A DNA stretch of 14,327 bases from a virus: the UHGV virus genome UHGV-0149611; one strand, written 5' to 3'. How positions within the stretch are numbered: position 1 is the first letter of the stretch; each line of letters starts with the position of its first letter. Under the pieces are notes generated by a model, which saw only the letters and a list, made by a program, of their open reading frames with translations, ran no database searches and was not told the origin of the DNA. Of this stretch, positions 11,477 to 14,327 are shown one piece after another. A program made the position numbers and the translations under genes.

Positions 11477-11506
11477 TTGACAGACTCTACAAAGTTGCTC
11501 TAAAGT
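11477..11506 (+). promoter_or_regulatory. sigma70-like promoter candidate: TTGACA (11477-11482), 18-bp spacer, TAAAGT; overlaps inverted repeat GACAGACT/AGTCTGTC
   Basis: Exact -35 with TTTTAAAAGGTG upstream; 8-bp inverted repeat spans the spacer and -10. Confidence 0.4.
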
Positions 11507-11545
11507 CTGTCACATCAACAAACAAATGAGAGAAGAGAGTAAAAT

Positions 11546-12961
11546 ATGAGCGAATTATTTAAACATGCGCACCTTCATGCAGGTCGAACTGAAAATGGTG
11601 CTGTAAACCATACTTCATCAATGTCTGCTCTTGTAGACTTTTACAAAGCTGCTGGTTCAAGCCGTAGCAACGTAGAAATCTTACCAGACCTGTTCTACAA
11701 AGCTTTGCGTGAGGATGTTGATGTTGCAGTTCGTATTTTGCTTCATATGCGAGATGTACGAGAAGGTATGGGTGAGCGTAAAGCCTTCAGAACTGTTTTA
11801 CTTCAAGCGATTGAAGACAAAGTTTTAGAGCCTACGCAGGTTCTTCGCATTATGGATAAGATTGCAGAACTTGGTCGTTTTGATGACTTCAAAATCTTCG
11901 TAGGTACTCGTTTCGAGACAGATGCCTTCAAACATCTAGAAGCAGCATTACTAGACCCTGCAACAGCAGGTTTGGCGGCTAAGTGGTTACCACGAGTCAA
12001 ACCACGTCATAAGCAGTTTGTAAAACGTTTCTGCAAGTTTGCCAACTTGAGTGAGAAAGAGTACCGCACACTGTTGTCTGCACTATCTGATACAGTTGAG
12101 CAAAAAATCTCTGCTAATGAGTTTGGTAAGATTGACTACAGTAAGATTCCTTCACTTGCTGCTGCACGTTACCAAAAACTGTTTAACCGCAAAGATGGAG
12201 AACGCTACAAAGCTTACATCGAGTCCTTATCAAAGGGTGAGACTAAGATTAATGCTGGTGCTGTTTACCCATACGATGTAATTAAATCTGTTAAGCATGG
12301 TAATGCAGATGTTGCTAATGAGCAGTGGAAAGCACTACCAAACTGGATGGCAGAGGGTGAAAACATCTTGTGTATGTCTGATGTTTCAAGCTCAATGTCT
12401 TGGGTGAATTTTGGTTCAATTACTGCTCTTGATATTGGTGTTTCACTTGCATTGTATGTAGCAGAACGTAATACAGGTTGCTTTAAGAATGAGTTGATGG
12501 TTTATTCAACAAACCCTCACTTCATCGAACTGAGTGGTGATTTACGAAACCGTCATCGTCAGGTGATGCGACACGTTGAATATGGCTCAACTAACTTACA
12601 AGCAGCTTTTGACCGTATTCTTGAAACAGGTAAAAGAAACAACTTGACTCAGAAAGATATGCCAAGTAAGCTTATCATCTTCTCCGATATGGAGTTCAAT
12701 CAGGTTGATGGAGCTAACGGTCGTACAAACTTTGAAGCAATTCGTAGTAAGTACAAAAAAGCTGGATACGAAATGCCTCAACTGGTATTCTGGTACTTAG
12801 CAAACCGTAATGGTACTTGCGAAGTGTCTGTTAAGGATAACGGTGTAGCAATGGTATCTGGTTTTTCTCCAGCTACTTTAAAAGCTCTGCTTGGTGGTGA
12901 GAAGTTTGACCCAATCAGCGTAATGCTCAAAGCAGTAATGATTGACCGTTATATCTGGTAA
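11546..12961 (+). CDS. von Willebrand factor A (vWA) domain protein with complete MIDAS motif (471 aa); possibly Ro60/TROVE-like
   Basis: C-terminal ~190 aa: ILCMSDVSSSM (DxSxS), GSTNL (Thr), LIIFSDME (Asp) in the expected order of a vWA fold; N-terminal ~270 aa appears helical; Ro60-like architecture is inferred only. Confidence 0.8.
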   Translation: MSELFKHAHLHAGRTENGAVNHTSSMSALVDFYKAAGSSRSNVEILPDLFYKALREDVDVAVRILLHMRDVREGMGERKAFRTVLLQAIEDKVLEPTQVLRIMDKIAELGRFDDFKIFVGTRFETDAFKHLEAALLDPATAGLAAKWLPRVKPRHKQFVKRFCKFANLSEKEYRTLLSALSDTVEQKISANEFGKIDYSKIPSLAAARYQKLFNRKDGERYKAYIESLSKGETKINAGAVYPYDVIKSVKHGNADVANEQWKALPNWMAEGENILCMSDVSSSMSWVNFGSITALDIGVSLALYVAERNTGCFKNELMVYSTNPHFIELSGDLRNRHRQVMRHVEYGSTNLQAAFDRILETGKRNNLTQKDMPSKLIIFSDMEFNQVDGANGRTNFEAIRSKYKKAGYEMPQLVFWYLANRNGTCEVSVKDNGVAMVSGFSPATLKALLGGEKFDPISVMLKAVMIDRYIW

Positions 12962-12979
12962 AAAGTTTTAAAAAGGGTA

Positions 12980-13008
12980 TTGACAATGTGTTTGATGCCC
13001 TTTAATAT
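12980..13008 (+). promoter_or_regulatory. sigma70 promoter: TTGACA (12980-12985), 17-bp spacer, TAATAT (13003-13008)
   Basis: Near-consensus hexamers with canonical spacing and TTTTAAAAAGGGTA upstream; about 120 nt upstream of the first tRNA. Confidence 0.55.
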
Positions 13009-13070
13009 GTTCTACATAGAAACGAAACGAGAGCTTTTCTAAGATACTGAAAAATATTTTAAAAAAGTTC

Positions 13071-13100
13071 TTGACAACCACTAAAAAATAATGTTAAAGT
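13071..13100 (+). promoter_or_regulatory. sigma70-like promoter candidate: TTGACA (13071-13076), 18-bp spacer, TAAAGT (13095-13100)
   Basis: Same architecture as 11477-11506; 27 nt upstream of tRNA-Pro. Confidence 0.45.
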
Positions 13101-13126
13101 GGTTACATAGAGTTTGAAAAGTTTAT

Positions 13127-13203
13127 CTCTGTTTAGCTCAGCTTGGTAGAGCGTTCCGTTTGGGGCGGTAAGGCCGGAGGTTCAAGTCCTCCAACAGAGA
13201 CCA
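13127..13203 (+). tRNA. tRNA-Pro (anticodon UGG), CCA encoded
   Basis: Acceptor CTCTGTT/AACAGAG, D-loop AGCTTGGTA, anticodon loop TTTGGGG, T-arm GGAGG-TTCAAGT-CCTCC, discriminator A, CCA; C1:G72 as is typical for tRNA-Pro. Confidence 0.85.
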
Positions 13204-13210
13204 AATTAAT

Positions 13211-13288
13211 GTTCCAGTAGACAAAATGGTAAAGTCACCACTCTTTCAAAGTGGATATCTGAGGGTTCAAATCCCTTCTGGAACGCCA
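13211..13288 (+). tRNA. tRNA-Glu (anticodon UUC), CCA encoded
   Basis: Acceptor GTTCCAG/CTGGAAC, anticodon arm CCACT-CTTTCAA-AGTGG, T-arm GAGGG-TTCAAAT-CCCTT, discriminator G, CCA. Confidence 0.75.
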
Positions 13289-13295
13289 GTTTTGA

Positions 13296-13367
13296 CAGAA
13301 GACCAATTACAGCAAACTTAATCTACTCATCTGACACGAAATCGGACAAAGAAGATATTTGGTCTGG
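13296..13367 (+). ncRNA. Stem-bounded element a: CAGAAGACCAA ... TTGGTCTGG
   Basis: 7-bp arms AGACCAA/TTGGTCT enclosing 52 nt; conserved flanks CAGAAGACC and GGTCTGG shared with elements b-d. Confidence 0.4.
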
Positions 13368-13378
13368 TCATTGAGAAT

Positions 13379-13455
13379 TGCGGGTATAGAGAAAGGGCGT
13401 CTCACATGTCTCATTAGCATGGTATCGGCAGGTTCGACTCCTGCACCCGCCTCCA
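13379..13455 (+). tRNA. tRNA with anticodon CAU (Met or Ile2); atypical features
   Basis: T-arm GCAGG-TTCGACT-CCTGC, acceptor 3' ACCCGCC plus U plus CCA, D-arm GAGA/TCTC, anticodon arm CATGT-CTCATTA-GCATG; register of the 5' acceptor strand ambiguous by 1 nt; position 37 is U. Confidence 0.55.
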
Positions 13456-13461
13456 ATTTTG

Positions 13462-13521
13462 CAGAAGACCGTATTCAGCAACAAAATACTTTTTGCGGAT
13501 AAAAGAAAAAACACGGTCTGG
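13462..13521 (+). ncRNA. Stem-bounded element b: CAGAAGACCGT ... ACGGTCTGG
   Basis: 7-bp arms AGACCGT/ACGGTCT enclosing 40 nt; arm sequence co-varies relative to elements a and c. Confidence 0.4.
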
Positions 13522-13532
13522 CAATGTATTAA

Positions 13533-13609
13533 GGTTAGGAAGCACATAAGGTATGTGCGGTCGCCTGTTAAGCGAATGGCACAGGGTTCGAATCCCTGAC
13601 TAACCGCCA
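13533..13609 (+). tRNA. tRNA-Asn (anticodon GUU), CCA encoded
   Basis: D-arm GCAC/GTGC, anticodon loop CTGTTAA, T-arm CAGGG-TTCGAAT-CCCTG, acceptor 3' ACTAACC, discriminator G, CCA. Confidence 0.8.
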
Positions 13610-13618
13610 AATTTAAAT

Positions 13619-13706
13619 GTGTCGTTATCCCGTAGATGGTAGCGGTGGGGACTGTAAATCCCTTGTCATTGAGACTCGGTAGGTTCGACTCCTACACGAC
13701 ACACCA
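13619..13706 (+). tRNA. tRNA-Tyr (anticodon GUA), long variable arm, CCA encoded
   Basis: Acceptor GTGTCGT/ACGACAC, anticodon arm GGGGA-CTGTAAA-TCCCT, ~15-nt variable arm, T-arm GTAGG-TTCGACT-CCTAC, discriminator A, CCA; 88 nt. Confidence 0.85.
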
Positions 13707-13711
13707 ATAAA

Positions 13712-13789
13712 GGTTATGTAGTTTAATTTGGTTAAAATACTACCCTGTCACGGGAGATGATGAGGGTTCAAATCCCTTCGTAACCGCCA
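13712..13789 (+). tRNA. tRNA-Asp (anticodon GUC), CCA encoded
   Basis: Acceptor GGTTATG/CGTAACC (one G-U), anticodon loop CTGTCAC, T-arm GAGGG-TTCAAAT-CCCTT, discriminator G, CCA. Confidence 0.8.
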
Positions 13790-13814
13790 ATTTTGAGAGG
13801 GCTATTTAGCCCCT

Positions 13815-13848
13815 CCCTTAAAGAGTTCTTACGAGTATTCTTTAAGGG
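13815..13848 (+). other. Perfect 10-bp hairpin CCCTTAAAGA / TCTTTAAGGG with 14-nt loop; a smaller GGGCT/AGCCC hairpin sits at 13799-13812
   Basis: Exact reverse-complementary arms; no U-tract follows, so not a classic intrinsic terminator. Confidence 0.5.
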
Positions 13849-13850
13849 AG

Positions 13851-13924
13851 CAGAAGACCAAATACAGCAAGAATGTATGAAATTTCAAGCCAATTTAATT
13901 TTGAAAATTTAAAACTTGGTCTGG
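13851..13924 (+). ncRNA. Stem-bounded element c: CAGAAGACCAA ... TTGGTCTGG
   Basis: 7-bp arms AGACCAA/TTGGTCT enclosing 54 nt of AT-rich sequence. Confidence 0.4.
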
Positions 13925-13937
13925 CTCAACAAATTTA

Positions 13938-14070
13938 CAGAAGACCGTTTACAGCAAAACTTAAACAATCTATTTCTCCGGTAAAGAAAAGGCGAAGGTT
14001 CGATTCCTTCACTCGGCAGATGTCGAGTTGGTGTAATGGTAGCACTTAAGATGATAAACAACGGTCTGGT
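13938..14070 (+). ncRNA. Stem-bounded element d enclosing a circularly permuted tRNA-like domain; candidate Y-RNA-like tRNA mimic
   Basis: 8-bp arms AGACCGTT (13942-13949) / AACGGTCT (14060-14067); inside, in order: hairpin TTTCT-CCGGTAA-AGAAA (13973-13989), T-arm GAAGG-TTCGATT-CCTTC (13994-14010), acceptor 3' ACTCGGC (14011-14017), 4-nt link AGAT (14018-14021), acceptor 5' GTCGAGT (14022-14028, pairs 7/7 with one G-U), then U8 and D-arm GTGT-AATGGTA-GCAC (14031-14045). Confidence 0.45.
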
Positions 14071-14212
14071 AATTATCTTTGTAGATAAGTTATTAAGCTT
14101 ACCTGTGAGTATGCGACCACAAAGGGTGAAAGGGTAAATTCTAGATTTAAACCCAAAAAGGCACATCGCTACAGACCTTAAGCAAGTCTGGGTAGCTTAT
14201 CTACAAAGATAA
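14071..14212 (+). repeat. 19-bp perfect inverted repeat AATTATCTTTGTAGATAAG (14071-14089) / CTTATCTACAAAGATAATT (14194-14212) enclosing ~104 nt
   Basis: Exact reverse complementarity; the enclosed segment contains a compact CAGACC-TTAAGCAA-GTCTGG version of the element motif (14171-14190). Confidence 0.7.
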
Positions 14213-14218
14213 TTTAAT

Positions 14219-14278
14219 GGAAGTGTAGCAGAATGGTGATGCGGCAGACTTTTAATCTGACAGGCGATGGGTTCGAAT
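14219..14278 (+). tRNA. tRNA-Lys (anticodon UUU), 3' end truncated by the end of the real insert
   Basis: Acceptor 5' GGAAGTG, D-arm GCA/TGC, anticodon arm GCAGA-CTTTTAA-TCTGA, T-stem 5' ATGGG plus T-loop TTCGAAT, then adapter begins. Confidence 0.55.
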
Positions 14279-14327
14279 CTGTCTCTTATACACATCTCCG
14301 AGCCCACGAGACACTCGCTAATCTCGT
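14279..14327. other. Illumina Nextera adapter read-through (not biological sequence)
   Basis: CTGTCTCTTATACACATCT + CCGAGCCCACGAGAC + 8-nt index ACTCGCTA + ATCTCGT, the transposase mosaic end followed by the i7/P7 adapter layout. Confidence 0.95.

Follow-up and report, generated by a model that had tools for sequence, protein, structure and literature searches.

Y RNAs are the closest described counterparts of four RNA elements that we examined in UHGV-0149611, a viral genome of 14,327 nt (the window, meaning this whole stretch), where elements a to d lie among tRNA genes on the 3′ side of a gene for a Ro60-like protein. The Y RNAs YrlA and YrlB are found within a few hundred nucleotides of a Ro60-type gene, on its strand and as several paralogs; their 5′ and 3′ termini form a stem that has conserved unpaired nucleotides, and one paralog carries a tRNA-like domain (PMC4201824). 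YrlA is laid out as a V arm, a T arm, a closed acceptor stem and a D arm, and its T and D arms hardly vary (PMC4201824); the 7-bp acceptor-like stem makes the Mycobacterium smegmatis YrlA a substrate of RNase P and of CCA addition (Chen et al. 2014, PMC4201824). The 2014 survey of Y RNAs covered TROVE-annotated genomes only (PMC4201824). In the Thermus phage phiLo, a Ro60 occurs with Yrl1 and Yrl2, and both binding and a ternary complex with the host PNPase have been shown (PMC12135203). Metazoan Y RNAs resemble the elements studied here in having a terminal stem that a bulge or internal loop interrupts, which is the Ro60 site, and a variable loop that is an effector module, but they are products of polymerase III without a tRNA-like domain and homology is not demonstrable.

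Phages are known to encode other small stable RNAs, some of them tRNA-like, among their tRNA genes, as with species 1 (rnaC) and species 2 (rnaD) of T4 and RNAI, III, IV, 1, 2, 2H, 3 and X in the tRNA cluster of T5. These RNAs are released by tRNA-processing enzymes. We know of no Ro60-like gene in T4 or T5. Together with the published phage Y RNAs (PMC4201824, PMC12135203), these examples make it too strong to say, as a first-pass annotation of the window did, that no such element is known from phage tRNA clusters. The Ro60-like gene of the window also has a described ortholog: gp130 of phage Bas63 has been reported to be structurally Ro60-like and to counter Ppl, a defence system, and the PhageMaP preprint guessed that some annotated downstream tRNAs might be Y RNAs, with no such RNA identified (PMC11482910).

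On sequence identity the window is from a FelixO1-like phage (Felixounavirus), since positions 11500-14279 match Escherichia phage vB_EcoM_ASO1A at 99.6% identity and many further Felixounavirus genomes at 96-99%. We present evidence from its sequence and from relatives that a to d are likely to be four paralogous Y-RNA-like small non-coding RNAs, encoded directly 3′ of a Ro60-fold gene on the same strand, and partners of its product.

Results

Four elements with a common closing module

Elements a (13293-13370), b (13459-13524), c (13848-13927) and d (13935-14072) lie on the + strand. The first-pass annotation had described four inverted repeats here, each beginning with AGAAGACC and ending with GGTCTGG, and both motifs are in marked excess: the window contains AGAAGACC five times (0.55 expected) and GGTCTGG six times (0.81 expected), counts that none of 200 shuffles reached. 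They form four ordered pairs on the + strand, interspersed with tRNA genes at the sites described, and the arms quoted were also right (a and c have AGACCAA/TTGGTCT, b has AGACCGT/ACGGTCT and d has AGACCGTT/AACGGTCT). The boundaries needed correction, in that the repeat in d ends at 14069 and not at 14070, and each element is longer by 3 nt on either side, where a second, covarying outer helix of 4 bp lies beyond an AGA/G internal loop.

When the elements were folded together with a little flanking sequence, all four gave the same closing structure: a 4-bp outer stem, an internal loop of AGA (5′) and G (3′), an inner stem of 7-8 bp of the form AGACCNN/NNGGUCU, the hexamer CAGCAA and a variable interior. 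CAGCAA is invariant in a to d, 2-3 nt past the 5′ arm, and had been missed in the first-pass annotation. The outer stems are UGAC/GUCA in a, UUGC/GCAA in b, GAGC/GCUC in c and UUAC/GUAA in d; the inner stems are AGACCAA/UUGGUCU in a and c, AGACCGU/ACGGUCU in b and AGACCGUU/AACGGUCU in d, and all 5′ strands read NNNC-AGA-AGACC. This strand in Felixounavirus, C-AGAAG-ACC, is loosely like that of vertebrate Y RNA (C-CGAAG-GU), and we treat the likeness as a lead only. The covariance model R2, described below, scored a at 64.6 bits (E 2e-12), b at 64.9, c at 59.1 and d at 48.8, and found no further module copies elsewhere in the 14.3-kb window.

Known families do not account for the elements. ARAGORN made no tRNA call at a to d as they stand, and a, b and c are without tRNA features. 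In Rfam searches the window gave tRNA only at gathering score; at E≤10 all that overlapped the elements was a partial match to tRNA within d and some chance matches far under threshold (Dicty_Class_I_RNA and IS605-orfB-II). No Rfam 15 family matches the elements, and 15 related loci searched at gathering score returned tRNA and tmRNA only. None of the papers in the collection searched describes these RNAs. There are no terminator-like sites (a GC-rich hairpin with a U run) at the elements on the + strand.

The adjoining gene encodes a Ro60-like protein

The gene upstream (11546-12961, + strand, 471 aa) is the ortholog of Bas63 gp130, the two proteins (window and bas63_0130) being 98.3% identical; its product has Pfam matches to DUF2828 and DUF7788, belongs by match to PHROG 850 ('RNA-binding protein') and has thousands of homologs, mostly in phages. 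A PDB search by sequence returned nothing significant. An AlphaFold (AF2) model built on 42 homologs (predicted local distance difference test score, pLDDT, 86) was compared with the PDB using Foldseek, and the best 10 matches were all full-length and of Ro60 type, including Xenopus and human Ro60, Deinococcus Rsr and the Ro60 of Thermus phage phiLo (E 4e-8 to 4e-6, template modelling score, TM, 0.5-0.65); isolated vWA domains ranked next. By this model the product has the Ro60 fold, a helical-repeat ring with a C-terminal vWA domain, in which the MIDAS (metal-ion-dependent adhesion site), DxSxS...T...D, is intact and invariant (D279/S281/S283/T349/D381). Homologs in cluster L mycobacteriophages are already annotated as 'Ro-like RNA binding protein'.

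Element a begins 332 nt 3′ of this gene on the same (+) strand, and the tie between the elements and the adjoining gene is a link that the first-pass annotation did not draw. Three features of Y RNAs are found together at this locus: a same-strand neighbour of Ro60 type, an end-paired stem with an internal loop, and a tRNA-like paralog, d. As in YrlA and YrlB, the gene lies within a few hundred nucleotides and the RNAs are several paralogs with conserved unpaired nucleotides in the stem; they differ in that GNCGAAN0-1G (PMC4201824) is replaced by (A)AGRAY...CAGCAA...RUYCU-G, in that the partner is a DUF2828/DUF7788 protein and not a TROVE protein, and in that the RNAs lie inside tRNA clusters in Felixounavirus and many other phages. 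In phiLo, too, a phage Ro60-fold protein, there among the best fold matches to ours, adjoins two stem-bulge-stem RNAs, but these carry CGAA and lie 5′ of a canonical TROVE protein (PMC12135203), whereas a to d lack CGAA. Bas63 has the same gene (PMC11482910), but there the elements lie unannotated between tRNA genes and d is covered by a minus-strand open reading frame (ORF), bas63_0137.

The module is conserved, probably as an RNA structure, beside divergent relatives of the gene

We examined 80 viral loci with relatives of the Ro60-like protein (cited by L numbers where needed), 75 of them at only 39-45% identity, searching 4 kb of flank on each side. A motif search had been proposed in the first-pass annotation; the strict descriptor AGAAGACC...GGTCT gave Felixounavirus-type copies only, with none outside Felixounavirus, but looser models reached distant phages. 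A generic stem-NGA-stem descriptor was too noisy. One anchored on CAGCAA showed clear members in many divergent loci, with 123 minus-strand background matches and with false positives inside the protein gene, where CAGCAA arises from the codons of VSGFSPA. Because MAFFT placed the 3′ arms of divergent members wrongly, the model was started from 11 well-aligned sequences and then iterated once. The resulting model, R2, gave 79 matches at E≤1 in 78 loci, 78 of the 79 being on the strand of the Ro60-like gene, with the consensus (A)A-AGRAY-NN(N)-U(U/A)-CAGCAA ... NN(N)-RUYCU-G. Matches occurred in 47 of the 75 divergent loci, often as two or three tandem copies, and 59 of the 68 matches in divergent loci were no more than 450 nt from the ends of the gene.

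The alignment and scoring of covariation that had been proposed bear out selection on a stem. Across 72 distinct sequences, 92.6% of cells were paired, a figure somewhat inflated by the fitting of covariance-model alignments to the modelled structure, against 59% in shuffled alignments and 26-48% when the partner column was slid; double-sided changes were seen in 10 of the 11 pairs, with 251 compensatory cells. The inner helix was 98% paired, one G-C pair was invariant, and the first-round alignment agreed. Offsetting the alignment bias, the anchors are conserved sequence, a scan by hand gave the same partners, and orthologs show both compensatory and G.U changes: the outer stem of b is UUGC/GCAA here and UUAC/GUAA in other Felixounavirus, and the arms AGGCCAA/TTGGTCT and AGACTGT/ACGGTCT of Citrobacter phage Moogle contain G.U-type pairs. 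The earlier view that selection acts on the stem rather than on sequence holds for the stem, but sequence too is under selection, at the AGA/G loop, at the second G-C pair and at CAGCAA.

An RNA or a DNA cruciform had both been proposed for the stem. The tolerance of G.U pairs and the presence of 78 of 79 matches on one strand point to action as + strand RNA rather than as a cruciform. The same observations bear on whether the elements are miniature mobile DNA elements, or cruciform repeats, bounded by terminal inverted repeats. Such an origin would fit the inverted termini, the several copies and the varied positions of the closing module in the tRNA clusters of different phages, but the orientation relative to the adjoining gene is 78:1, the G.U-type changes pair only as + strand RNA, element positions are syntenic between Felixounavirus and Moogle, the window holds no other copies and no target-site duplications are evident. 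We consider it very improbable.

Modules are also found in annotated phages. Four elements on the same plan lie among the tRNAs of Yersinia phage P778 (53% protein identity), with other stems (GGACUGU/ACAGUCC, GGAUUC/GAAUCC and GGACUC/GAGUCC), a 3′ bulge A, and CAGCAA or CCGCAA in every copy. In Listeria phage A511 (29%) three tandem modules follow a TTGACA promoter in a 357-nt gap just 5′ of gp57. In mycobacteriophage Rumpelstiltskin (cluster L, 34%) three tandem modules, GUGGNNNN-UAA-CAGCAA...NNNNCCA-G, stand directly 3′ of the 'Ro-like RNA binding protein' gene (L085 4439-4710) and are followed by a terminator; they are unannotated in the record, and the middle one carries T and D arms. Mini-modules of 40-50 nt occur in T4-like and KVP40-like phages, among them Vibrio phage ValKK3 and several T4-like metagenomic phages, at 7-17 nt 5′ of the start codon of the Ro60-like gene or overlapping it or the Shine-Dalgarno sequence (L012 1757-1800, L007 3950-3989, L018 2855-2893, L033 3945-3989 and L086 2962-3011). 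These look like autogenous translational operators mimicking the main RNA target of the protein, and this layout is our best indirect evidence that the protein recognizes the closing module.

The proximity of a to d to tRNAs raises a different explanation, namely that they are punctuation or processing structures of a tRNA precursor, serving in RNase P, E or III recognition, spacing or stabilization and then discarded, with no link to Ro60. The elements are 3-8 nt from the flanking tRNAs, and a reverse scan of IMG/VR with the 14-nt motif AAGGATNNNTACAGCAA, which gave 80 loci, 23 with a full module and 57 without, found most of these motif-first modules in tRNA clusters, on the tRNA strand, and in many cases the stored stretch held no Ro60-like gene. 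Against this, in 30 of the 47 matched divergent loci the module adjoins the Ro60-like gene and no tRNA lies within 4 kb, and linkage to the protein gene is thus independent of tRNAs. Tandem copies also flank the gene with a promoter ahead (A511) or a terminator behind (Rumpelstiltskin), the conserved single-stranded AGA, G and CAGCAA with variable interiors fit a protein-binding RNA better than a cleavage site, and the module is absent from the tRNA clusters of T4 and T5, where R2 reached no more than 10.1 bits and 12.3 bits, respectively. A role in processing alone therefore appears unlikely to us. The stable RNAs of these two phages, including T4 rnaC and rnaD, had themselves been candidates for the family and were rejected, as they have no sequence or structure similarity to it and reach R2 scores of 10-12 bits at best.

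In the reverse scan, a Ro60-like gene was present in the stored stretch of 4 of the 23 module loci and of none of the 57 non-module loci (hypergeometric P ~0.006, our own arithmetic). IMG/VR stored stretches are short, and one module locus, L090, is the same contig as L028, which carries a Ro60-like gene. Most other true modules lie inside tRNA clusters, often in several copies, and interleaving with tRNA genes is on this account a general habit of the module family. Metagenomic tRNA clusters with one to four same-strand modules and no Ro60-like gene in the stored stretch were seen at L090, L093, L103, L109, L123, L134 and L153.

Several further observations were made at these loci. In A511 a strong consensus promoter precedes ~550 nt without a convincing ORF (L084 2410-3070); this is not of the module family, and may be the hyper-transcribed CKA15_059-061 region (PMC12282133). 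No correspondence could be drawn between the A511 modules and the three regions that are hyper-expressed in Listeria phage CKA15 (PMC12282133). The P778 record annotates no tRNAs, where ARAGORN finds 19, and ~690 nt of this phage without predicted tRNAs (L082 6970-7660) contain the T-arm-like GGGTTCGATTCCC twice and may hold further tRNA-like RNAs. An uncultured phage has a tmRNA gene (L069 7696-8187, Rfam 85 bits) ~2.3 kb 3′ of its Ro60-like gene and two modules.

Element d encloses a permuted tRNA-like domain

Within the closing module of d, four hairpins in the predicted fold (13973-14045, + strand) make up a tRNA-like domain in permuted order: an anticodon- or variable-like hairpin with a 5-bp stem and 7-nt loop (13973-13989), a perfect T arm, GAAGG-UUCGAUU-CCUUC (13994-14010), an acceptor-like stem of 7 bp with a closing loop of 4 nt (14011-14028), and a D arm whose loop has GG (14031-14045). 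The partial Rfam tRNA match covers 13961-14011 (22 bits). With the closing module taken away and the sequence circularly permuted at its closed stem, ARAGORN at its default threshold recognized a complete cloverleaf with the first hairpin as anticodon arm; when this hairpin was instead treated as a long variable arm, the permuted sequence was not recognized. The anticodon-like loop has C at position 33, and d is for this reason unlikely to decode. The V-T-acceptor stem-D order and the 7-bp acceptor-like stem are shared with YrlA (PMC4201824).

Between Felixounavirus and Moogle the T and D arms of d are invariant, the acceptor-like stem keeps its 7 bp through three compensatory pairs, and the first hairpin is not conserved. 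These features weigh on the proposal that the elements are decayed, functionless tRNA pseudogenes, which the clear T-arm, D-arm and acceptor-like segments of d might suggest. The segments of d are, however, circularly permuted, with invariant T and D arms and a covarying acceptor-like stem, a to c have no tRNA features, and the closing module is kept down to 29% identity of the neighbouring protein. We give decay hardly any credence.

Relatives with tRNA-like domains were found at L008, L017, L018 and L044 and in P778 and Rumpelstiltskin. In L066 (3754-3855) a module encloses a D arm, anticodon arm and T arm without permutation, which ARAGORN and Rfam call a tRNA; the tRNA-like inserts of the module family thus have more than one topology. 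Such domains, and the standing of phage tRNA regions as hot spots for small stable RNAs in T4 and T5, would suit free-standing phage small RNAs that act independently of any protein, as tRNA mimics, nuclease decoys or regulators, the linkage being due to a shared RNA/tRNA island. It is, however, the closing module and not the tRNA-like part that is conserved, and such a part is missing from a to c and from most relatives; the position of the modules on the strand of the gene, not more than a few hundred nucleotides from it, and the operator-like leader copies point to direct recognition instead. We regard protein-independent RNAs as improbable.

The tRNA cluster and neighbouring structures

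The phage tRNA cluster starts at 13127 and, by ARAGORN and Rfam, comprises on the + strand tRNA-Pro(UGG) (13127-13203), tRNA-Glu(UUC) (13211-13288), tRNA-Met(CAU) (13379-13455, starting 8 nt past element a), tRNA-Asn (13533-13609), tRNA-Tyr (13619-13706), tRNA-Asp (13712-13789) and a truncated tRNA-Lys(UUU) (14219-14279); an annotated relative has 16 more tRNAs further on. Elements a and b start 3-4 nt past the preceding tRNA, and their 3′ outer stems stop 8 nt short of the next. Two sigma-70-like promoters predicted by consensus match (12980-13008 and 13071-13100, + strand), with perfect -35 hexamers, lie ahead of the tRNA/RNA cluster in a repeated block (12980-13100). A further sigma-70-like candidate (11477-11506, + strand, TTGACA-18-TAAAGT) lies 5′ of the Ro60-like gene; it is a consensus match only, and is annotated as a promoter in phage ASO1A as well. 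The contig ends in an Illumina Nextera adapter (CTGTCTCTTATACACATCT-CCGAGCCCACGAGAC plus index) that occupies the last ~48 bases (14279-14327) and cuts short tRNA-Lys(UUU); the Rfam tRNA match at 14219-14290 extends into it.

A separate structured RNA of ~145 nt is predicted (14071-14214, + strand, z-score -6.1), with 22-nt arms that are 95% complementary, a closing stem of 22-25 bp and a multiloop. It is 98-100% conserved in Felixounavirus, and BLAST found nothing outside Felixounavirus; an isostructural RNA of different sequence is present in Moogle (L083 6526-6675, z-score -4.95). The hairpin at its tip, CAGAC-CUUAAGCAA-GUCUG, has a compensatory change in Moogle (CAAACC-CUUUAGCAA-GGUUUG) with the loop YUUWAGCAA kept. 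The first-pass annotation had taken this hairpin, which exists but lies at 14172-14191 and not at 14171-14190, for a compact version of the elements. It belongs instead to the long-stem RNA as its terminal hairpin, and R2 gave no match there, although the RNA resembles a minimal module (a stem with AGCAA).

Between tRNA-Asp and element c, at 13799-13850, lie two very stable hairpins (z-score -5.2), the second overlapping bases of the outer stem of c. They have no U run and so are not a classical terminator; hairpins after tRNA-Asp are also present in P778. Mechanically called minus-strand ORFs of 80 and 85 aa (13368-13610 and 13909-14166) cross tRNAs and elements b and d. The minus-strand ORFs that match the Bas63 hypothetical proteins bas63_0137 and bas63_0138, the latter annotated over the region of the long-stem RNA, are probably spurious.

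Discussion

A probable variant of the Ro60-Y RNA kind

We class elements a to d as a variant of the Ro60-Y RNA kind and not as members of YrlA, because they have no CGAA motif, the protein is not TROVE by sequence and there is no Rfam match. We infer that the Ro60-like protein binds them. Several points weigh against their being Y-RNA-like partners of that protein. The canonical Ro60-recognition motif (GNCGAAN0-1G, or CGAA) is absent, its place being taken by CAGAAGACC in Felixounavirus and AAGGAU...CAGCAA in the wider family, and Pfam gives no TROVE match to the protein by sequence (DUF2828 and DUF7788 only). R2 at E≤1 finds no match in 28 of the 75 divergent loci, single-sequence fold z-scores of a to d are modest (-1.4 to -2.2), and the pairing statistics carry the alignment bias noted above. 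Finally, 19 of the 23 motif-first modules have no Ro60-like gene in the stored stretch and lie mostly inside tRNA clusters on the tRNA strand, so that the RNAs could have a tRNA-related, protein-independent role. With these points counted, a Y-RNA-like partnership is still the reading that we think likely.

Under this partnership, the tRNA/RNA cluster would be transcribed, tRNAs and elements together, from the sigma-70-type promoters at 12980 and 13071, and the RNAs would be freed by the tRNA 5′ and 3′ processing machinery. Release in this manner is suggested because a and b begin 3-4 nt after one tRNA and end 8 nt before the next, where RNase P cuts. The Ro60-like ring protein would then dock on the closing module, and the variable interiors, the tRNA mimic of d among them, may be adaptors or tethers that recruit host factors, comparable to the tethering of Rsr to PNPase by Y RNA and to the Ro60-Yrl-PNPase complex of phiLo. 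Where mini-modules occur in the leader, they may provide autogenous translational control of the Ro60-like gene. The counter-Ppl phenotype of the Bas63 ortholog is the sole functional datum, and because of it the particle probably serves RNA or tRNA quality control, or evasion of defence, during infection.

A wider proposal, which we put forward tentatively and hold to be possible rather than probable, is that DUF2828-type Ro60-like proteins and a 'CAGCAA-class' of Y RNAs form an unrecognized ribonucleoprotein system that extends across Felixounavirus, T4-like phages, KVP40-like phages, Herelleviridae, mycobacteriophages and many uncultured phages. The tRNA machinery would mature the RNAs of this system, mini-copies would autoregulate the protein, and the particle would defeat Ppl-like defences or protect phage and host tRNAs.

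Biological significance

Particles of Ro60 and Y RNA are a classic but poorly understood RNA surveillance system with few phage examples. If the partnership proposed here is right, a to d would be concrete RNA partner candidates for Bas63 gp130, which a genetic screen tied to evasion of Ppl, and the conserved module consensus, now defined, offers targets for mutagenesis. The RNA family is absent from Rfam and reaches very distant phage lineages. It offers a hypothesis at the level of function to account for certain gaps in phage tRNA clusters that carry no annotation, and flags bas63_0137 and bas63_0138 as ORF calls that are probably spurious.

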